Source: Psilocybe cubensis (taxonomy: Eukaryota). Taken from it: a stretch of 64,000 nucleotides of DNA. The DNA is taken from assembly GCA_017499595.2 (NCBI GenBank), contig CM038999.1, positions 4,154,001 through 4,218,000 of the forward strand, in the 5' to 3' direction. Of this stretch, positions 10,282-48,421 are shown in pieces. How positions within the stretch are numbered: the stretch's first letter is position 1; every line of letters begins with the position of its first letter. The notes beneath the pieces were generated by a model. The model worked only from the letters and a program-made list of their open reading frames with translations. It searched no databases and was not told the DNA's origin. Both the position numbers and the translations under genes were made by a program.

Positions 10282-10758
10282 TATTGGTGAGGATCAAAAA
10301 TCAATAGACACATCTTCCTTTATACTCAACAATGGAGTTGACAACAGAGAATCAGTTTATATCATCTTCTGGTATATGGCACGGTAATCATCACGTTTGG
10401 ATGGTGTTTTCTGATCATGGTGCGCTTCACAGTAATGAAGCACTGCAACAGATGTCTAGTGAAGAATAAATATAACTGTGAGAAGCTATTGATTTGGGAA
10501 ATGTTGTTAATGCCTCAGATCAGCTTTCATAAGCTTCAACCTGCTCCCACAGATGATATTGAGATCTGCGTCCCAGTTCGTTATGTACAACTGATGGCTA
10601 CGCAGTAGGTAGACAATATAGACACCAGGTGAACTTACAAATTCCCAGATGGTAATTGGACGGGTGGGAAAAGAAACTCAAAACTCAGAGAGGCCGTGGT
10701 GACAGCTCCATGGTGAATATAGATGGATATCATATTACGAACATGTGAAGGAGGGAGC

Positions 10759-12643
10759 TTACGAAGCTCTCGGTGCAAAATTTATTGAAGACACCTCAGT
10801 ATGTTGCGTTTGCGATTGTCTGACTATAATCTGCAAATCATCAGGTTTAGTTGTTGGCGCAGGTAGGGAAGTATCCGATTCATCGCCTTGTGTTCGGTAA
10901 AACTCTAGAGGAAAGCTGAGAGCGCCTGCGGAATTGGCAGATTGACTTCGTAGCTTCTCACGGCGCTCGAGTGATGCAAGGAGGCCACCAGTGTAGGCTA
11001 CAAATAGAAGCGCATGAGCAGACAGGGACAGGTGGACAGGCACATTAAATACGATTACTTGAATAGTTCAAAGTACTTACTATTGCTGAGAGCTAGAAAT
11101 GGAGCCATAAAGGCTGCAGTATCTTTCATGAATATCTTCTAGAGAAATGGAATGCCGTGTGCCCTCTGTGGTTGTCAAAAATGTGTAAAGTCACTCACCA
11201 GCATCACGGTCCCAGCAGCAATCACGGTTGTAAAGAGCCCTGTCGTTATAGTGTAGAATATTAATGTTTTAATTAGAGAGGACGATCTGGGGGCATGTCA
11301 AGCAGAGCTTAATCTGATCATGTTGGCACACACCGTGGGATTTGGGACCTCTCTCTCCATAAGAGGAAACACAGGGACCCCGCAATAACCAAGTCAGCTA
11401 GAAAAACTGAAAGAAGGATGGCGTAAACCGGAGTCTATGATAAGAGTGAATGATTAACCAAATAATCTTATTTATGGATAATATTTTCTCACATTCATCG
11501 CGGCATCTTGCAGAATGGTGTGTAGACTACTGCAGGAAATGATTAACGGCGAAAATATGTGCAGTTAATGTTATTGATTGCACTTATACTTACAATTCGG
11601 TGATGACATCTGAAAGTATTGAATTTAAACATCAGTAAGACGAACAATTTTTTCAGAAATGTCACAAACAGAGGGTTGCAGCAGGGGCAGCGAGACTTGG
11701 CACAACCTGATACACAAATGTCAGTATGACGGTGTAACGTTGTCCGAGCCCCAAATGCTAGCCTACAGTTATACAAGTCAATAAATAGTTTTTATCACTG
11801 ACTATTAACATGTTAATAATCCGTCAAGCAATGGAAGTATCAAACGACATCATACGCCTCCATATTCGATAAATGTATAGTCTGCAGCGTATAGCAATCC
11901 ACAGGTGTTTAAATAATGATCGAGATTGTACGTACCCCCTGACAATGGTGTCATTTATCGGCTGAACCATTTAAGACAAATGATTTGACATTTCAAGGTT
12001 GAAGCATACCAATGTATAGACTGCGGCCTGCGTTTAGAACGCAAAATTTTTACATGAGCTGAGGTTAAAATCAGTTTCTGGAACCACGCACAGTAAATTC
12101 CCTGTTCAGACACCATTATCAACTACCAAGAAAGAACGAGAGTGCACAATAAAACTTTCCAGAAATACTTATCCAAAAACAGACTCAGAGGACCTTCCAT
12201 TATAGATCTCTGCATAATTTTATAAAACCCGATTCCTCCAAAAACGACGGTAGCTGTACTCAAGATCCTGTTGACGAAAAGGCTTAGTACATCTGTATCT
12301 CATTCGTAAACCATAAAGAGGCTATGCCATGCATACCACATCACGATGATCTAACGTGTAAATGCGAGTTGAGGTATTCGTAAGCTGGACTTCAACAAGT
12401 GGCGGAACACGAACCAGATTACGAATAGTTCTTGGATCTTTGGCACCCTGTTGAAAGTATGTCAATGTCTGATACGATGTTATTCCGTATAGCCTGGAAT
12501 TTTTGTTGTCAGAATATGGCTGTCGATAAAATCTGAGATGAGAATCATATAACTGACAATAATGTGAGGTAGCATCCAGCGTATATTCCATTATACGATT
12601 GGAGAACCTTCAAAAGAAGATTAGTGTCGAGAATGTCTGCCAT
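10759..12643 (-). CDS. DUF6534-like multi-pass membrane protein, copy 4 (multi-exon)
   Basis: MADILDTNLLLKVLQSYNGIYAGCYLTL; LYGITSYQTLTYFQQGAKDPRTIRNLV; YTGGLLASLERREKLR; 3' end approximate. Confidence 0.8.
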
Positions 12644-13212
12644 AGCTATCAATGACAATAAGGGGGATATACAGGTACTCACATAGACCACCATGTTTTA
12701 TATTACAGATTTTATATGAAACTAGAAATAATCGATGCTTGCATGAGAAGAGTTGAGCTGGAATGTTGACCATACTCGACCGAAGAATGACACAAACACA
12801 TGATGAATGTCTGAACTATCTACGTTTTCCAGTATTTCAAATTTGCATGACCTTGACCGCCTCAGAATCAGGGAAACCTAGTAACACAGAGTAATTTATA
12901 TCACAGGATTGCCGTGAAGACCAGTCAAATGAAAATAGAATAGGGAAAGTCAATAAATATAATACATCCCATGTAAACCAACTCTGATATGAAAAGTTGC
13001 GAACGTACGAGTATAAACGGCTAATTAACGATAATCAACAATCAGTAGATATAGAACACAACATAGTAGAGGAAAAAGAACGCCTGTTCACGTCTCTACC
13101 GCAACCACACCACATCACATCTGTCTGCACAAATCCCAGCCCCCTCAACGCCGCAGATACACAGATGTTCATCAACCAAATGATGATCGCAGAGAACCAA
13201 AAACAAAGACTC

Positions 13213-14180
13213 TCATTCCTCCTCCTCACCGTCCTCATCACTATCATACGTGTTGAACCCTAAATCCCTCATACCCGCAACAGCCACAAGCAGCGGATGG
13301 TTCGGGTCAAAGCACATCAACATCTTGCCCACATCCTCCAGCGCGAAATCTTCAATTTCCTCCACGAGGGCCATCTCATCGCGGTCGTATTCTCCCATGC
13401 CCATGCTCATGCTCATGGGTCCGCCAGTGCCGTTAACACGCGCGGCGCGTACTTTGCGTCTGTCGGCAATGGCGTGTAGCTGTCGTTTCGTCGCCTCCAT
13501 CACCGCGCCGTGGAACTGCTGCGAGAGCGCCTCGGGTCCCCCGATCACGCGTAGGGATTCGGTAAAGTATTTGTAGAGCGAGGCGAGGAAGGTCGCGTCA
13601 TGTTCGGTGTTGATGCAGGTGATAAGCTGATGGAAGGCTACCATCTGATTCGTGAGGGTACCGCTCTGCTTGCCACACGCAAGAAGCATCGGGACAAGCC
13701 TGTATGAGGTGAAGGAGGAGAGTGAGAAAGGTAAAATAACTATAGGTGAAGCGAAACTCACATCACACACGCCTCACGAACCCCTTCATGGAAGTAAAAC
13801 CTCAAACACGGAAGCATCACCTCGAGTGTGGGACCCAAAAACGGGGCGAAACGAGGACCCAATGTCGAGCAATATATCACAAGCGTCTCGAATGCCTGAC
13901 CCTTTTCATCCATCCCGGACGTACGGACGCCGTACGTGTGCCCGTCCATCACGATGGTCTCCCACCCGTCACGTTCGTCACTGCATTCAACCTCTTCGTC
14001 TACATTGAGATGTCAGGTTAACAGAATATACATGGGAAAGGGAAAGGACGACGCACTGTACTGCGATAAATCTGCTTTTGCGCCAGCCGTCGCAAGCAGG
14101 GAGGGCATCACGAGAGGTAGGTACGGCTCAAACTCTGGACCTAGAGCCTGTCACATTGCTTAGCCCACGTCGTGATCAAG
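13213..14180 (-). pseudogene. Recent partial duplicate of the last exons of the importin-beta gene
   Basis: Near-identical to 53394-54360 including introns; QMVAFHQ vs QMVATVFHQ (6-bp deletion); high similarity stops abruptly near 14180; no matching 5' exons. Confidence 0.9.
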
Positions 14181-20949: not shown

Positions 20950-22990
20950 TCACTCGTTGCGTATGAGCGCTCTGGAATCTGATTTGATGCTCCACTTGAA
21001 ATTGATAACTGTGCTCACCATAAAATGTCTTAACGGGTTCTGCTTAAAATATTGGGAGGCTGTTAATTCACATCTGGAGTCAAAATATGAAGAAGTTTCT
21101 AGATACTATACCTCAGTCCGCATCCATGCATACGTGTTCGCTAACAATGAGGTCTCGAATGTCATTACAGTATCTATAGTACACAATTTAGTACACAGAA
21201 GATTTGAGGAAGTTTAAAATGGCCCCATAATGCGCAATCCAGCTTTCAAGGAAACAGGGTGTAAGAAAAGAATACCGCAAAATAGGCATAGCTGTGTCAC
21301 GCGGTTAGCCGCCCCCTCCACCTTACCCAACACAGTCAATGAGGAAATAACTTGAGCAAGGGTGGACATGTTTACCATGACTGTGAGAATACCGGTCGTC
21401 CTTTCATAGAACATGAACGACTTACTACAGACGCTGTTCTATGTAGGCATCACTGCATCTGTAAATCATTTTGGTCCAACTAGGTTGATATTTGACCTAC
21501 CTGTGAGCGCTTTATCCACAAATACGCTACTCAGTATCCAGAAACAACTAAATTTGGGTATCCCGATGAAGATTTCGTATATTTACAATCCCAAACATCC
21601 AGCAAAGCATCAATTTACCCATCACAAGTTATACATTCCAACCTTCCTACCGCAGGAGTTCATGGTGACAAAATTGCCAATGTTCAGCCCCCGTCGTCAC
21701 CGCACATAATAACAGCGACTTCCGAAGGAATGTTGTTCATTGATATGTGGGAATCAAATACCGACAGAAATACACCATTGTTCACTCGCATACAAGTAAC
21801 TTGAGTGCGCTCCATTGGTAAAAATGCGCATATACCCATGTTGGGACTTTCATTTACACTGTCATATCATTTTCCCTTCCTCAGCACCAACCGAGACTGT
21901 CACCAAAGACATCGACGTCGTCCCAGAATCTTAAAATTGTTGGGAACGACATGTGTGAGAATGCGACCCGAGAAACGTAGAAATTGATAGAATGAGTTCT
22001 TGCGAGTGGCGCGAGCGGGAGTGCAGATAGAGATGCATGTGACTGGTGAACTAATAATCAGTGAAGGGAAGAGAATGGACTGATTAAGACTTAGTGACAG
22101 GAGGGACCATGGACTATACGAGATGTATGCCATTCGCTCAGCAAAGGAGCTGACCTTTGCAATGAAGGAACTTAACTTCATCCTTTACCGAGCGCATCCC
22201 AGAACTTCATTCCGCAATTTGAACATGGTGAAGCTGCGTGAATCAGACCTGAGACGATAGAGCTCAACCGGAGTAGGTGTCCGTGTGCCTACTGGGGAGA
22301 TGTCGGCGAGATCCTGGAATGCTCCAAAGTAGGGAGAGCATGAATGGAAGGTTACATGGATTGTAGGTAGTAGGCAAGAAATAGAGCACGCTTTATAATT
22401 TTTGAGGCCCCGGGAAGCTCCCCTAGGGGCGTATCGACTTTTCGCGGATTTGAGACCTAAAAAAATAGCATTTTACTGTCCGTTTCTCGCGGATTTGAGA
22501 GGTCCGGAGGCCTACCTTTGACCGGGGCACTGCGGATTTGAGGAGAAGAATCTGCATGGGCGGCTGGTCTGGCCGGCAAATAGGGCGCGCTGCCAAATAT
22601 GGACAAAAATTAGTTTCCTTGTGAGGACATAAACGTTTCTGACTGCCAAAAACAAAAGAACTGTGAAAAAGACTGCTTGAAAAAAGCTGTAGAATTTTTT
22701 GCGCCTTTTTTTTGCTCCTTTGACTCCGTCCGAGGGTGAGAAAAATACCTAAATAGGAAGGTCTTGGCAAAATGACCGTCCGGTTTCGCGGATTGGAGAC
22801 CCAAAATCTCGCGGATTTCAGACAAATATTTTGGGTCCGGCGGGGATACGCCTGTAGGGGAGCTTCCCGGGGCCTAATTTTTGATAGACATCTTATATAT
22901 CATCAGTTTTCCGTGTGGCCGATTTTGCGAAGTTCATGATGTCGTTCTTTTTGCGTTCGTCACCAAGTTCCATCATGCGGAGTTTGAATA
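20950..22990 (-). pseudogene. Decayed importin-beta relic, interrupted by a MITE
   Basis: catcgacgtcgtcccagaatc (~21910) cf. agtcggcgtcggcccacaatc (~57078); gcgcgagcggg (~22010) cf. ctcgcgagcggg (~57175); shared GCGGAGTTTGAA block at 22977. Confidence 0.45.
22405..22875. mobile_element. MITE copy A (~470 bp)
   Basis: TIR aggccccgggaagctccccta...taggggagcttcccggggcct; flanked by direct repeat AATTTTTG; second copy at 44960-45431. Confidence 0.95.
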
Positions 22991-23212
22991 TGACGCCATT
23001 CGGACCGTTACTCGTGGGGACGAATGGAATGAGAATACACTTCTTTCTGGTCCTCCGTCACAAGAGGGAGTAATACAGGCATGATACAGAGTGTTCCTAC
23101 TAGTATTTCGGTCATTGTGTGAAAAAAATGGGTTATGGTGAAGGGATTCCCCTTCCATGAGCCTCTTGAACATGTAATGTGTTTAATTTACACCTTTATG
23201 TCCAGCTCCGCA

Positions 23213-25205
23213 TCAACAGTCGGATTGATCATCCTGGGTCTCCTTCACAACTTTGATCTCAACCGTCCCCTCAACGAAATGATTTGTAATTAATTCTAAA
23301 TCAGGATTCAAACTGGAAACGGAAACTTACATACGGCAGTGCATCATGGTCTTTTGACATCTCAGTGTGGGTTGTCTGTGTCTGCTCAACTTTAACCTGA
23401 AGGTTCTCGACTTTATCCGGTGGCGTAGAAGAAGAGGTTTCTGTCGAGGTTGCATCTTTTCGATAATGTTCTAAAGGGAAAGCGATACCTCCCCTGTATC
23501 CTGCCGATTGAAATCGTATTTTTTCACGTCGATCAAGAGATGCAAGTAGGCCGAATGTATATGCTGAAGATAGGTGTGCACAAGGGGATAGGTGCAACGT
23601 CGAGTTAGAATTTGGTTGCTTAGAGCAATAAAAAGTACTTGCTATTGTTAAGGACAAAAAATGCACCCATGTATGCTGCACTATCTTTCATGACTATTTT
23701 CTAGAGATACCAATCAGTATGTAAATATCAAGGTATGCCAAAAGTTTGTAAAACAACTCACCAGTATCAAAGTAACAGCGGCTATCAGGTTTGAAAACAT
23801 CCCCGTTGTCAGAGTATAAAAAATCAACGTTTTGATGATTGAAGATGATCTATTGGGATGTTGAAGAGAGATTCAGCAATTTCTTGATGTATTACACACC
23901 GTGGAATGTGAGATCGTTCCCTCCAAAGGAGGATACATAGGGAACCCGCATTAACCGAGTCTGCTATCAATATTGAAATAAGGATGGCAAAAACCGGGGC
24001 CTGTAATTACGGTAAATAGATGACAAGTACAAGGTTTTTTGAGGGACAATAAGCACCTACGTTTGTTTTTAGGTTGTAGAAGGCAGTATGCTGAGAGCTA
24101 TAGAAAATATGTACCGGATCAAGAGGCGCACGATATTTGATCACTTGGTTAGTATACTTACAATACAGTTATGACATCTAGAGGATTTCATTTTCACATA
24201 AGCAAGCGAAGAAAAATAATTACACTTGGATCACCTACAGAGTGTTGAAGAGAAAGCAACAAGACTAGGCATAACCTTATTATGACTTGGTCAGTATAGT
24301 GCAGCTTCCTCATAGTGCAGAGCTTCATCATACCGCCACACACGTCAGTACCATGTTTCTGTGGCTGACTATCAACATTATTCAATAGTTAGTCAAGAAA
24401 CTGGTATATCATATAGTGACATACGCCTCCAGACTCGATATATGTATAATCTAGAATCATGTATAAAAATATTTGAGTCATTTGATTCAGCAATGAAGCT
24501 GTACATACCCTCTGACAATGGCTGCGTTGAATGCCTAAATAATCTTTAACGCGACACAAATATCGAGTACTATAATTTAAATAATACCCATGCATAGAGA
24601 GCAGCCTGTCACAATATTGAAAGATAGAATTTAGCCTTGTGTAAACACGAGAGACGAGAGGAATGCACCGTCAACTCCCTATGAAGATGAAATTAAGTAT
24701 CAACCACTCAGCAAAATTCAGGTTGGCAAGGCGACTTTCCAGAAATATTTGTCATAAAACAGGCTGAGTGCACCATCCGCCATAGACCGCTCAATGATCT
24801 TGTAAAACGCGATTCCTCCAAAAACGGCTGTGCCTGTGTTCAAGAGCCTGTTAACAGAAAGGCTTAGTCAACCTAGAGAACAAGATTGGGACACTAGATA
24901 TACCACATCGACAGGATCTAATATCAAAGTTCAAGCTCTAGTCTTTGCACGGTGTCATATGGTTATAAACAGTGGGACACGTACCAGGAAACGAATAAGC
25001 TGGGGATCTCTAGCTTCTTGCTGAAAGTAAATCAGCGTCTGGTGGGACGTTAAGCCATACAGCCTATAGAATGCATTAGGATCAGCCACACGACGGAGAT
25101 ATCAGCGATTGAAACTGACATGACTGCGATGTAGGACCCCGCAAACAGACCATTATACGATTGGTTAAGTTCTATAAGGATGTTAGGGTCTGCGAGTCCA
25201 GTCAT
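23213..25205 (-). CDS. DUF6534-like multi-pass membrane protein, copy 6 (multi-exon)
   Basis: MTGLADPNILIELNQSYNGLFAGSYIAV; LYGLTSHQTLIYFQQEARDPQLIRFLV; YTFGLLASLDRREKIR; last exon GTVEIKVVKETQDDQSDC*. Confidence 0.8.
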
Positions 25206-25662
25206 TGGTGAGTAATGACAAAAGTGTAGAGTCCTATTAACCAGGGAACCAACGCATCTTATGTATTAGAAGCTATACTAACTTTAGAGTATCAGCGCAT
25301 ATATAAGAAGTAAACTGGAATTCTGATCAGACCTGACGGTGGAATGGGGAAAAATTCTACATCACGTTTTCCATGATCCCCGACATCAGTAAAACTACAC
25401 CCCCACTTTCGGGCACTTTCATTGCTTTCTAAAGTGATGAAAGTGCCGAAAGTGCGAAAGTGTTTGGGCTTGCTGCAAGCCAGACCCCATTTCCATGCAC
25501 AAGTGGTTTGATCTTTCGAAAGACCGAAAAGTGGCAAAAGTGTGCCCAAAAGATACCACACTATGAGTAAGCTATACATCTTAAGGAAAGCTTTTAAGAT
25601 CTTTCATGACGACAATTTTTTTTCAAAAGTATGAATTTGAGTCGCTTAAACTAGTTAGTAAT

Positions 25663-27985
25663 CTAATCACTATCGTTATCGTTATCAACAATAGAAAAAT
25701 CGGAGAGAGGTTCCTCGACTGCATCAGGAGCTGCTGGTGCAATCGTCTGAATTGTAATGCTCTTGTGCCTACGTGTAGCCTGCATAGCACCCTGAATGAT
25801 TTTTTCCCATCGCTTATCTGTAAGCTTATTGACTACACGCAGTAGATTAGACGTAGCTTTGCTTTCTTGAACCAAACCGGGTGATAGCGTGGGGTAGTAC
25901 TTTGGATCCCGAGTAAGATTATCCCCCCAGTTGTCTTTTGAGAAGTCACCCAATGGCCGTTGGATCTTCTGATATTCGCCCGTAAGCCAATGAGATATAG
26001 CACGATGGGACTAACAGAAACAGTTGATATCAGTGATGGTATGCAATAGTGCTATATATCACGTACCGCCTGAATGGCCATTATCAGTGCGCCTACTGGT
26101 TTGTCATCACGTCGGGCACTAGAGTGGATCGCGGATATGCTGGAGTAATGGTATGCGAGTGTTGATAAAATGAGCGGGTGCTGAAATATCCCCTGGTTGA
26201 TTAGAAAAAAGATTCTGGTTAAAATGCAAACAATTATCAATTCTAGAACTCGGAAAACACCTACTGTCGCATTAATCTGATCATCCCCCTCCTCATAGCT
26301 TAGGTAGTAGAATGGACGACACTTGTAGTCACCCGAGAGTGCCCATTTGCACCATTCTGCAATTCCAGATTTTGACCGATCTTCCATTGCTGGAATGATT
26401 GACCTCTCAAAGCATGTTGATGCTGTTTGAGCAAGTTTTGTACGCCAGTTATATATATTATTTTCTACCTATGCGGTAGTCAGTAAGGTCCATGCAAAAT
26501 AATAAATGACGCACCAATTTGGTTACCACTGTCTTCAGCCAACCCTCTAGAGGTACGTCAGGAAAAACTTTATGCCAAACATCCAGTACCTGCTGCTCTG
26601 ATGGACGCTCCCAAGGATTAATGATGCCAATTAGTTCACGGAGCATGGGAGAAAACTGCTCATCGTATGATAACCTCAGCTCAGACGGAAGGTCAACTTT
26701 AGCGCGGATTTCTTGCTTCCGTTTGAGCCTTCCATCCAATGAAGCTGGAGGAATATATGTTGGCACCGATGTTGTAGCTTCAACTTTGGCCAAGGAGCGA
26801 CCGGTAGATGCAGGGTTGGATGTAGGTATAGAAGACTGAAAAAAGATAAATGTAGTCAACGAAAGTCAATCTAGAAAACTGCATTAAGTAATACGCTACC
26901 TTTCCGCGGGAATTTGATGTGTTGGAAACCAGAATTCCACGCCTTTCGACTACCTCTCTTTCATCATCACTAATCCCATTGATGTTTTCTACGTCGTCTT
27001 CGTCCTCATCGTTGACCTCCATGTCACTAGTGCCACTGGTGCCGCTAGCATTGGAACTAGGAGGAAGACTTTGTCCCATATCGGGCATGAGATCAAAGTG
27101 CTCTTCGTATGTTTCTTCATTCCAATCTTCACGTATACCACACACATTAGCCTTCTTTATTTTTGCAGGTTTGCTAGCAAACATGTCTGTAATTGTCATG
27201 CATGCAATAACAAGTGCAAGTACGTACCTGGGCTGCGTTGTTTGCCCCTTTCGTTTGTTTCCTACTGATGGTTCTTGATTTTTATCAGATAATCGATGGG
27301 CGTTAACCTGTTTTCTAAGCCTTCCCCGTTTTTCCTTTCGACTTCCCTTAGACGTTGCTTGAGCAAGCTCAGCATCGTCATCCAAGCCTTCACCGTCATC
27401 AAGATCATCTGAATCTTCCGACTCAATATAACCCTTGTCAATATATTCATCATCACTACCACCACCCGATGATATGTCTCCTGATGTCAAAGGTACTTCA
27501 TCATTGTCACCGTGACCTTGTTAATTTTTTAATCAGTCTCGGGCATATTTTGTGTGTTGTATCATACCTGGTAGATCCAAAGTGGTACCTTGATCAGGTA
27601 AAGAGTCGAAGGAGGCTTTAGACAAATGAGTTCTTGAGTCGCTAAAGCTGTCATCTTTCAGACTATTTTCCTCTTGAAGAAGCTGGTCCTCGATTGCTGC
27701 CGCCTTTTGAATTGAAGCATTTCGAAGTAAAGCCAACCTTCTTTGTTCGGTTTGTTGATTTTTCTTTTCTTTGGCTACTTCTTCTGATGTCCGCTTGGGT
27801 CGTGGAGCATCCGCAATTCCTGGGTTTGGATTGCGTACTACCCGAAGGGTTGATCGACGGTCAGTATCTTGATTTGCAGTAGAATTCGATGGCTCAGCTA
27901 ATTTTATGACTGGTGCATCATCAACCTTTCTAGACGAGCGACGAGGAGGCCCCGAAAGAACCACAGCATTCTTTTTTGGTGGCAT
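25663..27985 (-). CDS. Transposon passenger gene: disordered basic/acidic N-terminus plus DUF6532-like C-terminal domain (multi-exon)
   Basis: MPPKKNAVVLSGPPRRSSRK; RPKRTSEEVAKEKK; acidic tracts; RPFYYLSYEEG...GIFQHPLILSTLAYHY...PVGALIMAIQAV...GDFSKDNWGD; ORFs joined by GT-AG introns. Confidence 0.7.
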
Positions 27986-28205
27986 CAAAGAGGTATGTGA
28001 GGTATCAGGATGTCGTCTAATGTGATGTGAGTGATTCAAATTTTGCAGAGTAGGTTGTTGCATTGTCATTGTTTTTTTTTTACGTCTTTGCCAATCATTC
28101 AAACACACTGCAAGTCACAACAATTCTAAGTTCACGGACACGGCAAGCAATCTAGACATTTTTCCATTGTAAACTAACAACTTTAGTTGGACCACAATAT
28201 AGTTT

Positions 28206-28970
28206 TTAAAAAATATTTAAACGAAGACCATTGACTCTTCGTATCGTTGGGTCATTTGCCTCTCCACCACCCAGAGAAATGCTCAACAGACCCAGTAGGT
28301 AAGCCTTTCTTCGCAATATCATCATTTCAAAAATGCGAATTTCCTGAGCTAGATGCGCTTTCCGAACTCCCGCCCGAATAGGTGACAATGCAATCCTAAT
28401 TTTTGAGCCATTACCTGCTTTGTGATTGAGCATGACATATTCAAAAAGTCGAGGGCTCTTCGTATATTTGATAAGGCATTTGCGTTTTTGCTTTAGGATG
28501 GCACGGTACAGACGAATGGTGAGCTCAACTTGGGTAGCTTGCATGCCGGCGCGGAGCTGTGCGTAGCTTGCTAGCTTATTGGGGTGCTGCTTTTTGAATA
28601 AAGGTGGATTTGCTTTGTTATACTAAAGCCGCATGGTGAGTTTTTTGACGGATTTGATATCACTTCACAAACTTACCTTTAGATTTGCTGACAGCTGTGT
28701 AACCCGCTCAAATTCTCCTTTGAATGCCCTTTCCGCCATTGTTGCAATTCCATCCTTATAGTCCGAGACTTCTATGGTGTCCATTTGGGCTTTTATTTCG
28801 GGATGAGGCGACAGAGGAGAAATTGTCGGTCTGAAAGGCATATAGTAATCGTCCTCCTCATGTTCTTCTTGGTAGTTGTAGTGCCAGTCCAAACTTCCAG
28901 TTTGTGACTCTTCTTCCTCAGAATTGGATACATATTTGTCAAGGGTATTCCAGTCATCAAATGGAGGCAT
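28206..28970 (-). CDS. Second transposon passenger gene, hypothetical protein (at least two exons)
   Basis: ORF 28665-28970 ends at a gtaagt donor (~28677) and is followed by ORF 28206-28544; divergent from the transposase ATG. Confidence 0.45.
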
Positions 28971-29103
28971 AGCGTGTAGTATTGTAAAGACAGTATTTTA
29001 ACCAGCGAGGAATTGAATGTAATGTGACATGTTGCTGTAACGCTGCCTTTCAACGTTCCAAACTCGACGCTGATGTTTTGCACTGCAGCACACTCAAATT
29101 TTT

Positions 29104-32100
29104 ATGTCTTCACGAACACGCAAGAAATTCCGGGCAGCAACATTTCATTGCTCGTACAATGGATGTATCAAAACCTCAACAACTTCATGGGGCATACAAC
29201 AACATTATAATCGAAAACACGTTATTCCCGCTGCTCTAAACACCCAGCCCGCTATTCCACGATCACCAACAGATATTCCACCATCCTCACGTTCTCCCTC
29301 TCCAAGTTTGCAACCCTGGTCCAATACCTTTTCGCCTCGTCGCTCTCCTCGGCGAACACCATCCGGATCTCCAAAATCCTATCCAAACAGTGCAAATCCA
29401 GTACCTAAATCCAATACACGTATAGATACACATCCAACAATCGATGGTTCTTAACAGTTTTTTTTTCCTTCAAAAAATATAGCTAATTGTTTGTGGATTA
29501 TCTAGGAAGACCATGCGATTTGGCGGGCAACTACCTTCCCCCAAATACAAAGCCACCGCCCGTTGAACCTCACAATAAGAATGACTTTACTCCCTTTGCA
29601 ACTCGGACAGAATTTGAAATGGCTGAATTTTTATTCGTCGAAGAAGAGATGTCAGCAGGTAGGATAGACCGTCTTTCCCAACTTTTAGGTGCCAATTATC
29701 CCGACCAAGACCCACCATTTGCAAATCACTCTGATCTTTACGCCTGTATTGATAGCATTAAGCAGGGTGATATTCCGTGGACCTCATTTTCAGTAACCTA
29801 TAATGGCAAAATACCAGAAGATGGTCCCGTTCCCGAGTGGATGATGCAAAAATACGAAGTTTGGTTTCGCAATCCACTGCATGTTCTAGAGCAGCAAATC
29901 GGCAACCCCACATACGTAGGAAACATTGACTATGCTCCAAAAAGGTATTATAGGAATGGTAAATGCAGATACCGGAATCTTATGTCGGGACAATGGGTAT
30001 GGCAGCAGGCTGTACGTTTCATTTGTTATACACTTTGATATACTTTAACTTTTTATTGTCTATAATATAGAACAAAATTGCTCAAGACATCAAATGTCAT
30101 GGCTCAATGTTCTGCCCGGTAATAATTGGAAGCGACAAAACCACAGTGTCTGTAGCTACAGGGCAAAATGATTTTTATCCACTTTACATGTCGTTAGGCA
30201 ACATCCATAACAAAATGCGACGAGCTCACAAGAATGCCGTCTCACTGGTTGGATTTCTTGCTATTCCTAGAAGTAAGTTCTTTTTTACAACTGATTCTGC
30301 TTATGGCTTACATGGTTTTTTCTGAAGCATCACAGGAATATAGCGATAGAGCTGATTTCCGCAAGTTTCGCCGGCAATTGTTTCACACATCTCTAGAACA
30401 CATTCTATCTTCGCTTCGGCCTTACATGTCTACACCACGGGTAACCTTGTGCGGAGATGGCCATTACCGCCGTGTCATATATGGAATTGGACCTTACATT
30501 GCAGATTATCCGGAGCAGGCATTGCTTGCATGCATTGTTCAAGGATGGTGCCCAAGGAAAGTCTGTTGCTCTATCCTCAACTTGTAATCTAATACTCTTT
30601 AATTATAGATGCACATCTCACCCCGACGACCTAGATGCACCTAGCCCTCGGCGATCACAGATGCATACAAAAGCCCTTGTAGACGGATGTACACTTATAG
30701 AACTGTGGGATGATTATGGCATAGTTGGCGACTTATTTGTGAGTGATTTTCTATGCATATTGTGGCACAATGCTAATGTTTTTGCTGACCATTAGCCGTT
30801 TACTACATCATTCCCCCGAGCTGATATACACGAACTTCTTGCACCCGATTTACTTCATCAAATTATTAAAGGAACATTTAAAGACCATTTGGTAGACTGG
30901 GTCACACAGTATATCAATCAACATCATGAACCACCGACTGCAAAGAAGATTTTGGCTGATATTGATCAACGGTATACATTCTTGGCTGGTCTAAAGAAAA
31001 CATTTGATGGCTAATATTGATCTTATTGTAGCATTGCAGTTGCGCCTTCTTTTCCTGGTCTTCGTCATTTCTATCAAGGACGTGGATTCAAACAGTGGAC
31101 GGGTGATGATTCAAAGGGATTAATGAAGGTTTGAGATTGAAATCAGAATTCAAGTCATGATGACTCAACCAATATATTAGGTGTATTTGCCCGCTATCAA
31201 AGGCCATGTCCCAGACCAGATGGTTCAAGCTGTAGCCGCATTTCTTGACTTTTGTTACCTGGTACGACGCAATGTTATCGACGATGATACTCTGGATCAA
31301 ATAGAGGCTGCTCTATCACGCTTCCATCACCACCGTGAAATTTTTCGAGACCTAAATATACGCCCTGAAGGATTCTCACTCCCACGCCAGCATTCACTCA
31401 CTCATTACCCTACATTAATTCGACTTTTTGGAGCGCCAAACGGTCTTTGCTCTTCAATTACCGAGAATAAGCATATTAAGGCTGTCAAAAAACCTTATCG
31501 GCGGTCCAGTCGCTACAAAGCACTTGGTCAAATGCTTGTAACAAACCAACGTATCGACAAACTTCTGGCAGCAAGAGTTTTTTTTACGTCACACAGCATG
31601 CTGAATAGTGTCCCGGAGCCCTTCAATTCTGTGAACATATTGAAGAATGTTGAGTCAAATACACCTCCTTCCACAGGCGCGCTCGGGGATTTGGGGGATG
31701 GAAGAAAAGAGTCAAATGAAGAATGCGGCGAAATTTTTGATCCAGAATCACAATCTGAGATTTCACTTGCAAAATCTCATGGTGCGTTTTTGCAAGCTCC
31801 TACAACGCATATATTCAACTCACTTTTGTTTAGTACGTGGTGTTCCACTAGAAATTACAGCATTTGCATTCCATGTTAAGCAACCACGCCTTGCGGAGCT
31901 CACTCAGCAATTTCTTTACGATCAACTTGTTTTTCAAAACGCCGACCTTCAGTTACATATCCCACCAAACGAGTCCCTTCCCAGTCTATCCGGTTGCACT
32001 TTTCGACTGTTTACTTCAGCTCGCGCTGTCTACTTCGCACCAAGTGATCTTTCTGGATCAAATGGTCTTTATTATGAGATGATTCGCTCGACATCATCAT

Positions 32101-32525
32101 GGCGCAAAGGTCCTGCAAGACGTGATTGTGTTTTTATTGGGAATTCGGACTCTGATGCAGATGGATTTGCTGGTTTACACGTGGCACGTGTATTCCTTTT
32201 TTTCTCGTTCAAATATGCCGGTACTATATATCCATGTGCGTTGGTTCAATGGTTTTCGCACATTGGGGACAAACCATGTCCGGTCACTGGAATGTGGAAA
32301 GTCAAACCAGACCTAGAAAGACGTGACCAACGACATGGCCAACGGCGGCGGATGAGCGTTGTTCATCTGGATTCTATTTATCGAGGTGCTCACCTGATCG
32401 GGGATGCCGGGAAGGATTTCATTCCTCTCAACACCAAGTTTGATTTTTCAAAATCTCTTGATTCTTTTCGTTCTTTCTATGTCAACAAATATGTAGATCA
32501 TCATGCACATGAGATAGCGTTTTAG
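29104..32525 (+). CDS. Plavaka-family transposase with N-terminal C2H2-type zinc finger (about 9 exons; one donor site reads GA)
   Basis: CSYNGC...HYNRKH; YEVWFRNPLHV; NLMSGQWVWQQA; PVIIGSDKTTVSVATGQNDFYPLYMSLGNIHN; GPYIADYPEQALLACIVQGWCP; DLLHQIIKGTFKDHLV; FKQWTGDDSK; FSLPRQHSL; GAPNGLCSSITENKHIKAVK; FYVNKYVDHHAHEIAF. Confidence 0.92.
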
Positions 32526-32989
32526 ACACCCCAAATATACTCTTTTTGGATGCTTTATCATTGAGAGAATAAGTAAAGTGAAAGAACTCGTGAAAGTGTA
32601 TAAATAGTTGCAACAGAAGTGGCGGGCTTCCAAAAGCAAAAGTGGAAGTTACGAAAGTAAAAGCAAAAGTTGAAAAAGCCCTTGAAAGTCCTAGCGTAAG
32701 TGATTTCTTAGCAAGCGCTAGAGGGTGTAGTTTTACTGATGGACTCTCAGAACAACAGCAGACCATTCCTTAAATGCGCATAACACAGGTCCACAGACCT
32801 TGTAACTCAAGGTGATCATCAGACATCGGAAGAGTAGATAGTTTAGTGGCATCTGAAGGAGAACGCACGGCGGAGAGATGGGCATTCGAGTTCAAATAGA
32901 ACAGAAAATGAACAATGCCAAAACTAAAGAGAACACTATTCCCGTATCCCTCCTATACCTGTTCATACCCAAGGGCAACAACATCACAC

Positions 32990-34660
32990 ATAGGTCCATC
33001 AAACAAATCAGCAACCTCAATTCCGCCAGACATCATTGAACCACAGATACCAACAGATGCCTGATATCGTCACAGTACAGCAAGAGAGAGATCTTGTGAA
33101 ATTATAGTTGCCTATGCTCATGGTCTGACGCTGCCGTTGACGCGTGTAGTCATAGCTTTGGGTTGTCGTCATCGCATGAAGCTGGAAAATAGATTAACTC
33201 ACGTCACAATGCGGAAATGGCCTGCTTGGTTATCATTCGGGTTATAAGGTATCATATCGAAATGAAAGAAATGTTGGACATCGGACAGCGCATCCGAACC
33301 AACAGTGATGAATCACTACCACCGACAACTTCTCATTCAGTCCACTGAATGTATGATATTAGCACGCACCAGTCACCACTCGCATTCCATTGCCGTCATA
33401 CGCAACTTTGTATAATCTGGGAAGTCCGCATATGGAAGCGCAACCAACAAAATCTGCGTAGTCGACGGCTAATGTTACCACAATCAGGGATAATCCTATC
33501 GATGCATGCTACAATGAGGAAACAGCTCACCATTACAAATGTAATCTCTCTCACGGCCGCAAGCACCGCAAGCGTTGCTATTCCTGCTCCCACGCATACA
33601 TCCACACCTGCATCTAGGGTGAGCTCGGATTAAGAACCCTACATCAATGAATTGGCGGCTCAGAAACACTCACACCCTCTCTCAACGTCTCCTCTCTCCA
33701 ACCTGCATTCACCTCAAGCTCCCCTCCCCTTCAAACAACGTATCACATTAGTGTGTCATCCACTGCACCGCCTTCCATAACGTATTTGACCCCTCCTCTG
33801 AGGCAGCGATCATGCCGTCCAGTAGTGACGAGACGGCATTCAAGTTTTTCGTAGGGTGAACCCCGCTGTCGTGGAGTTGGTGGCTCTGCTAAGAGGAGAG
33901 TAGGGGGCGGGATGGTCGTGCAGAGGAGATTGAGGAAGAAGCATGAAATGAGTAAGCGTACACATCAAAATTGAGAGGCAGTGACAAGCGTGAAATACGA
34001 CGGGAATGCAGATCACGGTGAAGGATGGAGTGCATGAGAACCATGGAAGGGGTTGCAGATGTTGGAGACGAATGTAATGGAGGGCGAGTGAGCGCGAGAA
34101 GAATGTTTTCTTGACAAGTCAGATTACGGAGGTTCTGCAGGTGAAGGGGCGTTACAAGGACGGGCGGCGAGAGGATGGAGGTGCTGGGAATTGGTAAGAG
34201 GATGGATGTGGATCTTTGTGAACTGTAAGCACGCACTGAGAGGAAGAAACTTGATGGATATATGCAGCTCGACCGCACCATCCAGAGAAGTGTTACAAAT
34301 CTCAGAGGGAGACTCACATGTTGATGCAACTCGTCGTTTCACCCCTTCACCCTTCTGCTTCACCGCTTATCTCATTACCACCATACATAAAGCATCCATT
34401 GGGACATTGCACGCTGTGAAACAATTAGACGCCTGGAATAGATCTGAGACGATAGAGGTCACTTACAGGGTTTGCCATAGGGAGGCAATGATGTCATATT
34501 TTCGGGATGGTCTAAAACGAAAGGGTTGATCGATGATCGATGAAGTCGGAAGGGTTGGTACGAACGGAAGGTTAAGAGCACGATTTCGCCAAAGGTTCAT
34601 GATGTCCAACTTAGATGTCGTTCGACAAGTCCCGACAGGCGGAGTTTGAACGATGACGTG
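32990..34660 (-). pseudogene. Decayed importin-beta relic
   Basis: 33541-33611 aligns with 54776-54847 (IATLAVLAAVREITF vs ITTLAMVADASEVTF); ~33110-33170 resembles 53575-53645; PPLHS...PSRP at 33.9-34.1 kb. Confidence 0.7.
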
Positions 34661-34689: not shown

Positions 34690-35994
34690 TATGGAAAGCC
34701 GGAAGAGCGAGGTGCCCAGACACAAACCAAACATCGTCCGGCAGGTATGCCGAGTGATCGATAGGCAACACACCACATGCAAAACAATCCCGCTATGCCT
34801 GAATGACTTCCGACACCCTGCACCGAGTCCACTTTACAAAATAAGTATACTCCGTCACGTACTTTAGGTATTACCTGCCATGGGTAGGTAATTTGGATAC
34901 ACACATAATTATTACATTAGTACACAATATGACGCAAAATTCTCTAGTTATTGGCATGGCAGGTAATTGCGTCGAAGCCGACGTTTTGAGTTATTTTTTG
35001 CCCTCTATTATTTAGTTATGGCCTGTAAGAAAGGGTTTGTGACGTTAGTGCCAAATGTGGCTCCGAAAGTAACAGCGGTTCCGTAGCGGCACACGGAAAA
35101 TATTCAAAAATGAAGCTTAGAGGTAGAATAGACAAATTAAATTACTCTGTATTTCTGTTTTCGACACCGGTTCTCTAGCTACTACATAGCTGCATTTATA
35201 CTGTAAAAATAAGGTGTTCAAAGGAAGTAGACAAAGAAAGAGATACAAGAGGGTTAAATGGGAAATACATGAAGGTGGAGTACAACTGTACAAGTCAGTT
35301 TTAAGGGGAATAAAATGAAGAAATAGGAATAAAAAATAAAGAAAATGAGCTAAAGGACTGCGTGTATTGGGTGGACGGAGCGAAGGTGGAGTCCACAGAA
35401 AAGAAAATTATAGATAAGATAAAAGGAAGATAGTTGGGGGTGTGGGAAACAGTCCGGATCGTCACACCCACCATTGGTTTTCGCTCACATCAAGGCTTTC
35501 ATCCTCATCTCAAGGTTTCAACGAGGTCGAGCTTTCACCACTCACCGTGCTCTCTCACCTGCCCTAGCCACCTCCTTTTTATCTTCTCTCATATCCATCA
35601 CATCCATTGCCCGTGACCAACCGCCCGCTGCGCTGAGCGCATACCAAAGTCTGGTTTGTGTATGTAAGCACTCTGGCTCTTTTTAAAAGCAGGTTGACTT
35701 CCTTTCGTATCATCAATGCGCTAGCCATGAAGGCCCAAATACCGCGGTCATCTTAATCATGCAACAATATTCAATTTATTGCCTTTCTTACAGGGCAGAA
35801 CTAAATGATAGACGGCAAAAAATAACATACCTAAGTATGTAACGGAATATACCTATTTGTATAGTGGACACGGTGCAGGGTGCCAGAAGTCATTCAGGCG
35901 TAGCGGGATTGTGTGTTGCCTATCGATCACTCGGCATACCTGCCGGACGATGTTTGGTTTGTGTCTGGGCACCTCGCTCTTCCGGCTTTCCATA
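34690..35994. mobile_element. Non-autonomous long-TIR (foldback-type) element, 1305 bp, 6-bp TSD
   Basis: Termini TATGGAAAGCCGG...CCGGCTTTCCATA; inverted arms ~34690-35034 and ~35782-35994 with indels; CAAATC at 34684-34689 and 35995-36000. Confidence 0.9.
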
Positions 35995-36460
35995 CAAATC
36001 CTTGGAAAATCAAAAATATATCTACGTGTCGATAAGAGAAAGATTACATTTCAGTGATTTAAGATTGAGCATGGAGCATTTATAAAGTTTGGGTTCCTCG
36101 TCATTCATCAGATTAACAAGTCCAAGAGGTGCGAAAGCGGCTGTTCGCACAAAGTGATCAAAATATGTGACTGTTGGATCACGGACGCTAGCTTGACCCA
36201 CAAACAATCCAAAGTCGACTTCAAGACTACACTGAGTGAGTGAAAAAGACTTTGGGTTCTTCAAACGCATCTTCTTAAAGTTAACTGAGCTAAGAATCTA
36301 CGTCGTTGGCAGAGAGTAGATGTGTCGGAAACAGCAATTTCCCAATATACATACTGCATCTGTAAATACGTCCAGCATCTAAAGAACATGCACAGGTGTT
36401 AATTACTCGAGTAGTAATGATGCTGGGATACAACGTGTGTTTAATGCAAATGGCGTGACA

Positions 36461-38452
36461 TCAATTTCCTGGATGATTGTCGCTGTCCACTTCTGTGACC
36501 ACTTTAATGTTAAGCGCCCCCTGCGAAAGAAGATATGTGCTCAGTAACACATATTCGCGCTGACCACAAAAGACAGAAGCTTACAAAGTGATTAGATTCT
36601 TCCTTTGTAGCTTCGACGTCCGTTGAATAATCCACGGCATCTTGATTGCGGTACATTTGTCCATTCGGAGACCGAAGTGTAGTGTCTTTATCCATGGGGA
36701 CAAAGGAGGAGGTACCTGTGGAGACTGTGTGCTTCGAAATTTGCAGAGGAAAGCTTATCATTCCACAGGTTTCTTCAGATCTAGCTCGTAGCTTATCACG
36801 ACGAGTAAGTGACGCTAGGAGGCCAATGGAGTATGCTAAGACAACAAGACGGACAATCAAACTCTGAGTCAGATTTCCGTCTCTGATGGAAGTGAGATGG
36901 ACTTACTGTTGCTAATTATGAAATATGACCCTGTAAACGCCGTCGTATCTGTCATGACTATTTTCTAAAGGAATGAAATACGGGTTGCATCAGACCTTTT
37001 CAACAATAGGTAGAAAACATACAAGTATCAAGGATATCGTGGCAACAATGCTTGTGAAGAGACCCGTCGTCAAAGTATTGTAAATCAATGTTCTGACGAG
37101 TGATACTGTTCTACAAGGGTGTAAATTAAGACGTACAAAGTCAGAGGCTGCCACCTACCGTGGGATTGGGGTCCGCCTTCTCCATAGTAGGGTACAGAGT
37201 GATGCCGCAATGACCGAGTCGGCAAGAAGTACTGAAATAAGGACGGCGTAGAGTAGACCCTACGACCAGGATGGAGAATCAGTATCATTTCTGTCCATCC
37301 AATATTTTCTTACATTCATCTCGATGTCATGAAGGACATTGAATTTAAAGCTGGGAAGGAACGGTAATGTTGTTAGTTTTATATCACGCTGATGCGGTAC
37401 CGCCGTATTCTGACTTACAACACAACATCCAAGTCTAAGTGCATATCCAATAAGTTTAAGCAAACTTACAGAGCCAGTTCATTAGTTTTCACATACAGAT
37501 AGTTATGATCAGAGCCGCGATATTAGGGAGGCTCTAGTAGGTATATGCAGGACCGTTGCGGTGAGTCTGGAATATTATTAGAGAAGTTACACACACCACA
37601 ATGGAGACCAACAGACGGTTCCCATTGCTGACTATCAACGAAATTGATTCAATCAGAAACCGCTGCGACAACGGGAGGGCACTATAGTTAACGTACGCCT
37701 CCAAACCCGATAAATGTAGAGGCTGGTAATCGTATGTCAGTGAGTATAACGCTAGATATATGGATGAAACTTACGCTCGGACAATGGGGTCACTCAAGGT
37801 CTGAGAAACGTTATCACCAAGAATAGAATCAACCAAAAATTAAATCATACCCATGTGTACAAGGCAATCTATGATAACATTGGCGAATTCATCAATTAAA
37901 ATAATGCAGAAAAGAAGTAATTGAGGAACGTACAGAGAATTCCCTTTGAGAACGTCGTACTAAACCACACTGTTCATTATCAAGCTGAGAACTGCTCACC
38001 AAGAGAATTTGTCATCGAACAGACTCCGAGCACCCTCTGATATGGCATGTTGAACTGTGGTGTAAAACCCGATGCCTTCAAAGATGATAGTAAATGTGTT
38101 CAAAAGCCTTTGATTAAACGGTTGGTCAGATTTCTGCGCCAGAGAGAAGTAATATCTACCAAATAACCATGATCTAAAAGAGTGAAGTCTCAGCAATTAA
38201 AATACAGCGTAAAATTGGTACAAGTATTTACCAGAATCCGAATAGGTCTCGGATCTTTGGCACCTTGCTGAAAGTACACTAATGTCTGATGGGCCATCAC
38301 GCCGTATAGCCTGCATCATCGACAGGCGCTCAGTGGGCAGCAAAGAGCGCAATACCAATTACTGACAAAATTGCAAGAAAACAGCCAGCGAAAAGGCCAT
38401 TATATGATTGATTAAGTTTCGTAGTGGTGATGGGGTCTGCTGAATCCGACAT
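36461..38452 (-). CDS. DUF6534-like multi-pass membrane protein, copy 7 (multi-exon)
   Basis: MSDSADPITTTKLNQSYNGLFAGCFLAI; LYGVMAHQTLVYFQQGAKDPRPIRILV; YSIGLLASLTRRDKLR; last exon GALNIKVVTEVDSDNHPGN*. Confidence 0.8.
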
Positions 38453-39629
38453 TGGGTACAGTGAGAGGGAAACAACAGACGAAGAGCCCACTTTATATCA
38501 CATAGTGGCGTTGAGGTTAACAATAGATTACGAGTGATTCTATCATTCCCGGGGAGCATCAAGTTTTGATGTGGATTATGGGCGCAAAAGACACCAAAAA
38601 TAACCCATTCATTGAGCTCGCACGTTCGTAGAGGGATTTCTTACATCTTATACAGATTTGAAGATGCTCGTCAACATTTTTTTCCTTGTGTTCAAAAACG
38701 ACGTCTACCCTAACTATCTGTGTCATAATATGAGAGTAGGTTGCTACTAATAGAGCGTCACAATGATGATGGATTTTATCTGTAATCATTAAAGGATACC
38801 CCAATAGCGTACAATTGGAGAAGTTAAAGGTGATGTTGTGAGAAAAAATAATATACTTTACTCCCCGCAGTACTTAATTGCGACAAAGAGAACCAAGAAG
38901 ATTAGACATAGCCGTGAGAATCCTTCGAACAAGAAATGGTCCTCGAACCGTGAAGACCGAGGAGCCGGAGTAGTCAGTGCTAGATAACATAAATACACAC
39001 GCACTCCACATTACACACATATTCAAACAGACAAAAGATCGCATCACGCATTAGCGAACTATCATATAGGATACTTATCTCTACTAACAGATACCGACTG
39101 CTTACGCTCCTAGAGCCGCCTGTTCATACCTGCGCTGATAAGTAGCATGGAGATACTGTGACGTTTTTCCCAGGTGCAACTTAATGGCGACGGAATAGGA
39201 AAAAAATGATATGTTTTCAACAATCCAAACAACCATTGGATATTGTATACTCACTTCAGGTTATATTACACAGCCAACGTGCTTATGGATCTGCTAACAG
39301 ATTCCGTAGGAGTGTTATAAAATTGGTTCTCGAGCTTGATTTAGTGGTTGTCTTTTTCCTGAAAAGGCGTGGGAATCTATCCCCTATCCAATGTCTAGCA
39401 CTACAGCAAACCATTCCTCAAATTGCGCCACTCAGTAGCGTACATACCTCGGAACCCAACTTGATTTGATTATCATGATTGTAGATAATTTAGTGATACG
39501 ACAAGAGCCAAATGAGGCTGAGAGACGGTCAATTGAATAGGGGGCGCAATACACACTCACACCATACCTCTGGCTAATTCAATTGCATACAGGATTATCA
39601 AAAAGTCAATGTCAACAAAATTAAGAACC

Positions 39630-44959: not shown

Positions 44960-45431
44960 AGGCCCCGGGAAGCTCCCCTACAGGCGTATCCCTGCCGGAC
45001 CCAAAAAATTTGTCTGAAATCCGCGAGATTTTGGGTCTCCAATCCGCGAAACCGGACAGTCATATTGCCAAGACCTTCCCATTTAGGTAATTTTTCTCAC
45101 CCTCGGACGGAGTCAAAGGAGCAAAAAAAGGCGCAAAAAATTCGAAAGCTTTTTTGCAAGCAGTCTTTTTCACAGTTCTTCTGTTTTTGGCAGTCAGAAT
45201 GCGTTTATGTCCTCACAAGGAAACTAATTTTGTCCATATTTGGCAGCGCGCCCTATTTGCCGGCCAGACCGGCCGCCCATGCAGATTCTTCTCCTCAAAT
45301 CCGCAGTGCCCCGGTCAAAGGTAGGCCTCCAGACCTCTCAAATCCGCGAAAAACGAACAGTAAAATGCTATTTTTTCGGGTCTCAAATCCGCGAAAAGTC
45401 GATACGCCCCTAGGGGAGCTTCCCGGGGCCT
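44960..45431. mobile_element. MITE copy B (inverted relative to copy A)
   Basis: Same TIRs and near-identical interior; flanks CTCGATAC / CTCAATAC (8-bp TSD with one mismatch). Confidence 0.95.
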
Positions 45432-45995
45432 CTCAATACACTCTTAATCTTATACCTCTCTAACGTATTCAACCATCCATCATTATATAGCTCACCCCGT
45501 GCATGCATCCCAGACATTAAGATGTCATCTAGAGAATTGAGTATTGGACCCTAAAACGACGCAAATGGCGTGCCCAGTGTTACGTCAACGTATCACAAAT
45601 CGTCGGCTTCGAGTGGGTGGTGAACTTTGGCAGCCGCTATAAGTTTAGATTCAGACGGGCTGGGAGTGCATCGCTTCAAATCCCCCGTAGAAGTTGCACA
45701 GATTTGTACTCGGGTCTCGGGGCAGGCACATTTTCCTTCATAGCACAATCTCGTTCAGCATCATAACCACGACTTCCACCAACCCATCGATCCCCAACAC
45801 AAGCTACAGCAGAAAGCTTTTAAAGCTGAAACCATACAGTTATTTATAATTTATATGCCAGGTAAAACAAAAAAAACCGGTTTTTTGAATAAAAATATGG
45901 ATCATAAATCGTTGTTTTACAAATGCACCCAGATCCTGTAGCAAGTCTATGGTTCTACCCATCGTTTTTATTCATCTGTTCTGATCGGCAGGCTT

Positions 45996-47955: not shown

Positions 47956-48421
47956 TGGTAATAGTGGGAGCGAAAGGACATATCACGCACCTCTTTATAA
48001 CATAAGGAGGTAGACTTAACAACAGATGACTAGTGGTTCTATCATTTACTAGATGCACATTCGACACGATTACCTGTGCTGTATTTCAGTGAATGGTCGA
48101 ATCACCACAACCTCCATTGAAAAGAGAAGCCAGCAGCATTAAAATCAATCAAGCGCAGCCCATAACCTTCACGCCCAACATTCTATAAAGTAACTTTGGA
48201 AACAATCACAATAATTGATCTGGAAAGATCTGGAATGTGAATCAGACTTAGCAGAACGACCAGAATATCATGTATCTCGCGAGCCTGGACAGATTCCATC
48301 GTGGAATTTTTATGGATTCTAGAGGTGTTATAGACTGTAACTCTGAACATGTTCTTTATTTCTACGCCCTTCACACAGTCTACTAGAGAGCCCTTCCTAG
48401 CGGAGTGTCATGTGTCGTCTC

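Follow-up and report, generated by a model that had tools for sequence, protein, structure and literature searches.

The DNA analysed here, called the window below, is a 64,000-nucleotide stretch of Psilocybe cubensis contig CM038999.1 (assembly GCA_017499595.2, positions 4,154,001 to 4,218,000), and our subject is a 7,358 bp element at window positions 25384–32741 that is structurally complete and was inserted recently, and that we regard, with good confidence, as a PlavakaB cut-and-paste DNA transposon of this agaric fungus that is polymorphic within the species. It is bounded by terminal inverted repeats (TIRs), flanked by a target-site duplication (TSD), and contains a transposase gene on the plus strand and two further genes, called A and B here, on the minus strand; all three are intact and under purifying selection, and they are the three genes that a first-pass annotation of the letters had claimed. 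The features of the element are as follows (strand is given where one applies).

25382–25383: left TSD unit, GA; a single 2-bp unit in the empty allele
25384–25402, plus strand: left TIR, 19 bp, starting CATCAG; 100% complementary to the right arm and conserved at the ends of other copies
25384–26500: left 1.1 kb, product of a recent exchange with the subfamily of the contig C3 copy (mosaic element)
25403–25545: left subterminal cluster of AAAGT(G) words, some of them arranged as a short inverted pair
25663–27985, minus strand: gene A, seven exons, 664 amino acids (aa), exons mapped from database protein P0001 (27985–27568, 27516–27228, 27173–26900, 26835–26515, 26468–26250, 26192–26067 and 26010–25663)
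28206–28970, minus strand: gene B, two exons (28970–28677 and 28622–28206), 236 aa, stop-free in the window (C2) and C3 copies
29104–32525, plus strand: Plavaka DDE transposase, nine exons, 991 aa, with an N-terminal C2H2 finger; identified by PF18759, gene model, motif conservation and substitution ratios
30557–30608, plus strand: transposase intron 4, 52 nt, GA..AG, splitting the Arg codon within C-P-R-C
32570–32722: right subterminal cluster of AAAGT words
32723–32741, minus strand: right TIR, 19 bp, ending CTGATG
32742–32743: right TSD unit, GA, immediately outside the right arm

The two TIR arms (19 nt, 100% complementary) rank first among the 113 inverted pairs within positions 24500–33500, and the left and right terminal 220 bp contain 7 and 9 AAAG(T/C) words, respectively, versus 0.45 per 220 bp in the interior; the ends of the copies on contigs C3, C11, C6 and C10 (below) are likewise enriched in AAAG[TC]. 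A PF18759 domain, CATCA..TGATG termini, a 2-bp TSD and a D..D..C(2)C..H(3-4)H..E arrangement of transposase residues mark PlavakaB elements, and all four are present here. The termini are not the 5'-TGT..ACA-3' of PlavakaA, and the CATCAG ends and 2-bp TSD differ from the CAC..GTG termini and 3-bp TSD of EnSpm/CACTA proper. The perfect 19-bp TIRs with CATCAG ends, the GA duplication of 2 bp and the CACTA/CMC-related Plavaka class with subterminal repeats had all been proposed by the first-pass annotation, and each holds.

That annotation had also suggested a genome-wide search with the TIRs. In the 46.6-Mb genome (21 contigs, of which contig C2 contains the window) a TIR-derived pattern matched 13 places and its reversed control none, while the whole element, used as a DNA query, found 11 matches. 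Both ends are present in four copies, and all four have a TSD of 2 bp that in no case extends to 3 bp. The window copy has GA/GA, and the others, with the element nested in one of them, are these.

C3:4045276–4071188: C3 copy, TSD CC/CC
C3:4046158–4064694 (approximately): nested PlavakaB element of a multi-copy family, within the C3 copy
C11:170492–177318: C11 copy, TSD CA/CA
C6 copy: 1,178 bp, similar at its ends only and non-autonomous, TSD AA/AA

The family thus has a 2-bp TSD without target preference. Full copies number only three (window, C3 and C11), a low copy number. The C3 copy is interrupted by an 18,537-bp element of a different PlavakaB family with CA on both of its flanks, and the corresponding site in the window is a single CA (31861–31862). 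About 14 closely similar PF18759 matches (272–278 bits) belong to, or resemble, the family of this nested element. The other five places matched by the TIR pattern (two on C3 and one each on C9, C10 and C12) showed no partner end in the surrounding DNA examined. The C10 place is a 1,259-bp left-end fragment (C10:1238929–1240187) that is 99.8% identical to the C11 copy, with no right end found in 19 kb of DNA, and it appears to be a very recent abortive insertion or duplication; at C12:2265437 and C12:2265747 two related terminal sequences lie 310 bp apart with an identical 20-bp flank, which suggests that one end of a sister family underwent a small tandem duplication. Metagenome contigs also contain PlavakaB elements that appear complete and have 2-bp duplications (CA, TT and AG), at L093:399–7717, L093:682–6998 and L046:247–7217, the ends in L093 forming two nested pairs.

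Sequencing reads from other isolates contain the site without the element. Of 13 runs listed, five contained 0.11–0.20 of the words, about the share found for the flanks, and the three DNA runs that were aligned (X5, X6 and X10, each from a different study and none from the possible source study) all contain an empty allele in which position 25355 is joined to 32743 through 26 intervening letters. These letters reproduce the left flank up to ...CCCC-AA-CTCTC, that is, with one 2-bp unit, and the joint is supported by depths of 14.4 (X5) and 23.6 (X6) and by 9 reads (X10). The element is therefore absent from the same site in other isolates. The empty site predicted by the first-pass annotation was found as a single 2-bp unit in all three runs, in none of which it retains a TIR, and departs from the prediction only in reading AA, not GA, at the target. 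In the same three runs the element's left end also adjoins other flanks, so the family occupies other sites in those isolates. A fourth aligned run, X12, which is RNA by guess only, gave no records and speaks neither for nor against expression. That the ends and the TSD are chance matches or an assembly artefact can be dismissed as next to impossible, since one isolated 2-bp match has about a 1-in-16 chance of arising by accident but the three other copies and the nested element each have a 2-bp duplication different from that of the window, and the empty site was found in three studies.

Several observations weigh against our main reading. The target in the empty allele is the AA just mentioned, which we take to be a haplotype difference because other small changes lie nearby in that allele. 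The variants listed from other isolates resemble the C3 type, which has a GC donor at transposase intron 4 (below), and not the window copy. Most of gene B (its 3' part) has been deleted from the C11 copy and the C3 copy is split by its 18.5-kb insertion, so neither is a working autonomous element today.

The window copy is a mosaic: it is 98.6–100% identical to the C3 copy over 25384–26500 and 82.4% identical over 26601–32741, a pattern that points to recent recombination or conversion between subfamilies with a break near intron 4 of gene A.

The transposase gene has eight introns of 52–60 nt, and their removal leaves a stop-free open reading frame (ORF) of 991 aa in the window copy, 979 aa in C3 and 982 aa in C11. 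Four exon ORFs matched the Plavaka Pfam profile PF18759, a check that had been proposed at the outset, with expect values (E) of 1e-16 to 1e-32, above the cut-off, and together cover profile positions 1–242 and 290–325. The catalytic and zinc residues D305, D410, C425-x-x-C428, H632-xxx-H636 and E656 follow the D..D..C(2)C..H(3-4)H..E layout described for Plavaka transposases (PMC12730594), and are conserved in 62–66 of 66 homologues of at least 800 aa. The ratio of nonsynonymous to synonymous substitution rates (dN/dS) is 0.07–0.10 for the three pairs of copies (dS 0.6–1.0). In a quick tree of 86 rows, with homologues from databases and metagenomes only, the three copies form one clade (Shimodaira–Hasegawa-like approximate likelihood ratio test support 99). 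The sister of this family in the tree is P0008 (labelled Lyophyllum atratum), which like another close relative, metagenome locus L048, has C-x-x-H in place of C-x-x-C; L048 is intronless over its available part (a complementary DNA or an intronless copy). The first-pass annotation had called the transposase "nearly intact"; intact it is, and the qualifier falls away, as there is no stop or frameshift once intron 4 is spliced at its GA donor.

This donor is the unusual feature of the gene, and only with it is C428 joined to the rest of its motif. The intron 4 donor is GA in the window copy, GC in the C3 copy and GG in the C11 copy, while the other 21 of 21 donors of the three transposases are GT. 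Among relatives, represented by the best 80 of 375 confirmed metagenome loci with transposase exon 4, this position has GT in 75, GC in one, TT in one (probably a one-base loss) and no intron in three; GT is thus present in 75 of the 77 relatives that have the intron, many of these loci being near-duplicates (64 distinct GT junctions). By this distribution, both the intron position and its GT donor are ancestral. Nineteen further stretches of this genome with Plavaka-type transposases were inspected, and those in which the second-D motif could be read have no intron at the same spot, so the odd donor is not shown to occur genome-wide.

Every pairing of an AG with a GT or GC donor in the interval from 90 nt upstream as far as the acceptor was considered, and none kept W-C-x-x-C in the window or C11 copies; C11 has one in-frame GT/GC alternative, which puts two extra residues between the cysteines. 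By its sequence, the window gene would yield transposase only if intron 4 is spliced at the GA donor, whose neighbouring bases are a full match to the donor consensus; splicing at the GT four bases downstream would end the protein at 439 aa and intron retention at 436 aa, in either case short of the complete zinc motif and of the catalytic E. Some 480 single-base changes could break the transposase gene (386 nonsense and 96 splice), and the sole candidate lesion in the window and C11 genes is the same base; with so many possible lesions, two independent lethal hits on one base are unlikely. Apart from intron 4 the ORFs contain no stop, and purifying selection acts on them; use of the weak donor is hence probable, and we think it quite probable that the GA donor is functionally spliced. 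The flanking donor consensus is matched at 7, 6 and 6 of 7 positions by the odd donors (window, C3 and C11), a fit of at least 6 being seen in 12 of the 64 distinct GT donors. Two facts reduce the weight of this match: the strong donor context of three related copies amounts to a single observation, and the Pro-Arg codons also fix the exonic AAG.

Donors of this kind have been reported elsewhere. In the agaricomycete Ganoderma lingzhi, 35 GA-AG and 20 GG-AG introns are annotated among about 92,000 (PMC11590231), human genes with GA-AG and GG-AG junctions have been reported (PMC4176328; PMC7072748), and a GC-to-GA donor change in intron 12 of Trema orientalis SYMRK is still functional (PMC10668435). 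The Trema case is one variant of a plant host gene, whereas the present family has A, C and G at the same donor position among its transposon copies. A title-level search of the literature on transposases with non-canonical, inefficient or weak splicing found nothing on Plavaka. The public models of the three transposases (P0005, P0006 and P0007) are either cut short or leave out exon 5, as would be expected if gene finders are unable to place intron 4; the odd donor thus accounts for automatic annotation having broken all three genes.

We consider it probable, though a shade less so than splicing at the GA donor as such, that the odd donor is functional but inefficient. An inefficient donor would hold transposase output low, but that it is a throttle maintained by selection is a tentative idea that we put forward with reserve. 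A comparably doubtful possibility is that the second donor base is free to drift when the rest of the site fits the consensus, splicing being efficient and the odd base being devoid of regulatory meaning. All three non-T bases are present, as at a neutral site with dS of 0.6–1.0, and the GA donor of Trema is reported to be fully functional (PMC10668435). However, T is found in none of the three copies although GT is ancestral, the competing GT four bases on yields a truncated protein and appears to be the one used in the C3 database model P0005, and free drift fits poorly with a family of three full copies.

Somewhat less probable, and in our judgement unlikely, is that the window element is a real PlavakaB copy whose GA donor, like the GG donor of C11, is a recent inactivating mutation of an ancestral GC donor, the copies having been moved in trans by a C3-type master with a GC donor. 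Such donors are very rare, GA-AG and GG-AG making up about 0.04% and 0.02% of G. lingzhi introns (PMC11590231), and C3 alone has a GT/GC solution that retains W-C-x-x-C; C3-type letters predominate among the variants listed from other isolates, the left end of the window copy derives from the C3 type, and C11 has its separate large deletion. Nonetheless, crippled copies of this kind require two independent lesions at one base of about 480 possible, and both 3-kb ORFs, after long branches with purifying selection, are free of further stops, frameshifts and splice defects.

Gene A encodes a protein with a disordered N-terminal half of acidic and basic character and a helical C-terminal half with a probable DUF6532 domain, and P0001 maps onto it exon for exon. 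Its dN/dS is 0.11 between the window and C11 copies; C3 was excluded from this comparison, as an extra short intron or shifted border there gave a false frameshift. In the Atlas, residues 365–640 group with DUF6532 clusters at 0.97, with 188 of 256 features in common, and the sister copies of gene A score 28 and 24.5 bits against the DUF6532 profile PF20149. Among the 80 metagenome loci, 19 have at least 3.3 kb upstream of the transposase and can be tested for linkage, and 16 of these 19 have a gene A homologue upstream, on the opposite strand (reversed control 0). On this arrangement gene A looks like the standard second gene of the PlavakaB group.

Some results do not favour that reading of gene A. 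P0001 itself scores just under the PF20149 cut-off of 24 (E 1.7e-4, 22 bits), and the loci scored with the gene A profile were also those used to iterate it, with 11 of 19 found on the first pass and 16 of 19 after three iterations. A predicted structure gave no significant relative either: the model has one long helix in its disordered N-terminal half and a confident helical C-terminal domain (predicted local distance difference test, pLDDT, mostly 80–95 over about residues 375–560, 60.3 for the whole), and Foldseek found no match to it at E ≤ 0.001. The best VIA-align match, homeo-prospero, is not significant (Z 4.9, root-mean-square deviation 3.9, 114 residues aligned).

Genes A and B might alternatively be captured host cargo without a role in transposition. 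This would agree with the loss of gene B from C11 and with the lack of a detectable gene B relative beside other PlavakaB transposases, and no catalytic or DNA-binding fold is recognisable in either protein. We nevertheless find it improbable for several reasons: gene A homologues hold their position and orientation in those 16 of 19 loci; gene A and the transposase have their closest database relatives under the same two species labels, L. atratum and Tricholomella constricta; and most PF20149 matches in the present genome are near Plavaka matches, with 4 of 6 (3 of 5 places) no more than about 11 kb away and a fifth about 20 kb away.

Gene B begins 133 bp from the transposase start and faces away from it, with gene A next after it. 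It encodes an acidic N-terminal half and a predicted helical hairpin, and its dN/dS is 0.12 between the window and C3 copies. Gene B matched no Pfam family, stayed below 0.8 in the Atlas, and among 1.84 billion representatives matched only its own C3 copy and a low-complexity sequence by chance; a metagenome search with the exon-2 half of its profile gave no match. Its two-sequence structure model (pLDDT 60) matched generic coiled coils only. In the searches made gene B appears to be an orphan with no relative outside the window's family. Pfam scans found no TET/JBP dioxygenase gene inside the element, where genes A and B occupy the space to the left of the transposase; the predicted models of both are all-helical (that of gene B without exon 1).

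The DNA around the element includes a tandem family of many-exon genes for hydrophobic proteins, 65–70% alike, with one member at about 23200–25205 on the minus strand, about 180 bp upstream of whose inferred start the transposon lies, and paralogous stretches at about 3200–4800, 8800–12600, 36700–38500, 46200–48000 and 51000–53000; six exon ORFs of this family that were scanned had no Pfam match. An importin-5-like gene (PF18808, PF25780) lies at 53324–58300, and a 1-kb duplicate of part of it, 90% identical, at 13141–14178. Two short repeats occur as inverted copies (22404–22875 with 44960–45432, 96% alike, and 34690–35050 with 35780–36000, 87–91% alike) and are probably small non-autonomous elements. 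The last 9 kb of the window (55000–64000) has a strong strand skew, with GC skew to -0.44 and AT skew to +0.39.

In En/Spm (CACTA) two proteins are made, TnpD and TnpA, and TnpA binds the subterminal repeats. The window element is like it in having related catalytic motifs, CA..TG ends, subterminal repeats and a second protein, although we detected no homology and no fold match between DUF6532 and TnpA. From the fixed linkage of gene A, the subterminal AAAGT clusters and this En/Spm biology, we infer that the gene A protein may act as a TnpA-like helper, binding the element ends or managing chromatin. By analogy with its family, the DDE transposase would bind the TIRs and the subterminal AAAGT words, excise the element and insert it with a 2-nt staggered cut, and would also mobilise the 1.2-kb non-autonomous C6 copy.

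PlavakaB DNA transposons are described from Agaricomycotina within the CMCT clade, and complete families with 5'-CATCA..TGATG-3' termini and 2- or 3-bp TSDs are in print (Kojima 2025; PMC12730594, section 3.2.2 and Fig. S2), which makes the premise of the first-pass annotation, that Plavaka transposases are known mostly as protein domains, out of date. The same work gives fungal EnSpm elements CAC..GTG ends and 3-bp TSDs, unlike the window element (PMC12730594). PlavakaB-2_SLL in its supplement begins CATCAGTAAAA, as the window element does, and a family there labelled PsiCub is 13.6 kb long and has different ends; the terminal sequence of the window's family has no match in the readable supplement text (about 400 letters per sequence), and could still be in Repbase. 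The element is accordingly a new family of an already known kind. What is new here relative to published work is the DUF6532 second gene and the GA/GC/GG donor series, neither DUF6532 nor a non-GT donor being mentioned in the examined parts of PMC12730594, whereas the anatomy of ends and TSD is not new. In the literature searched, DUF6532 appeared only within a list of domains. The TET-containing PlavakaB elements (Plavaka-11_AB of Agaricus bisporus and PlavakaB-1_GyCo) share with it their ends, transposase type and internal accessory genes, but their accessory gene is a PE-type TET/JBP dioxygenase, a domain that genes A and B do not have (PMC12730594). The giant Plavaka of the red alga Bostrychia (bioRxiv 10.1101/2025.02.11.637652) likewise combines a Plavaka transposase with several accessory genes, but is 17–19 kb long and has SET/methylase and ParB/2OG-oxygenase genes, none of which was seen in the window element.

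In the Drosophila P element, one intron, IVS3, is removed inefficiently, which restricts the amount of full-length transposase, and the unspliced form has an early stop (PMC6917496). The P element belongs to an unrelated superfamily and is controlled by tissue-specific factors and Piwi-interacting RNAs, in place of which a non-GT donor would exert the putative control in the window element, and the comparison is one of workings only. The window element would share its mechanism with the remaining CMCT cut-and-paste elements, and it may resemble the P element in that a single intron limits it. A fuller proposal, which we offer only tentatively, is that this family abandoned its GT donor and has kept any base but T, the weak donor being a built-in throttle by which most transcripts would give the 436–439-aa protein, possibly a repressor as in the P element, and a minority the active transposase, with DUF6532 as the obligatory second protein of PlavakaB.

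The ends and TSD by themselves matter little, as they add one more family to a described group. We found no functional test of a Plavaka element in the literature consulted, and a complete copy that is absent from the same site in other isolates makes this element a good candidate for the first one. With GA, GC and GG at one and the same donor, the family offers a natural experiment on the tolerance of the fungal spliceosome and on self-limitation of a transposase. If DUF6532 is linked to PlavakaB, many mushroom genes now called "hypothetical" would become transposon genes, and its role here, if true, would give a function to a mushroom-wide domain of unknown function.

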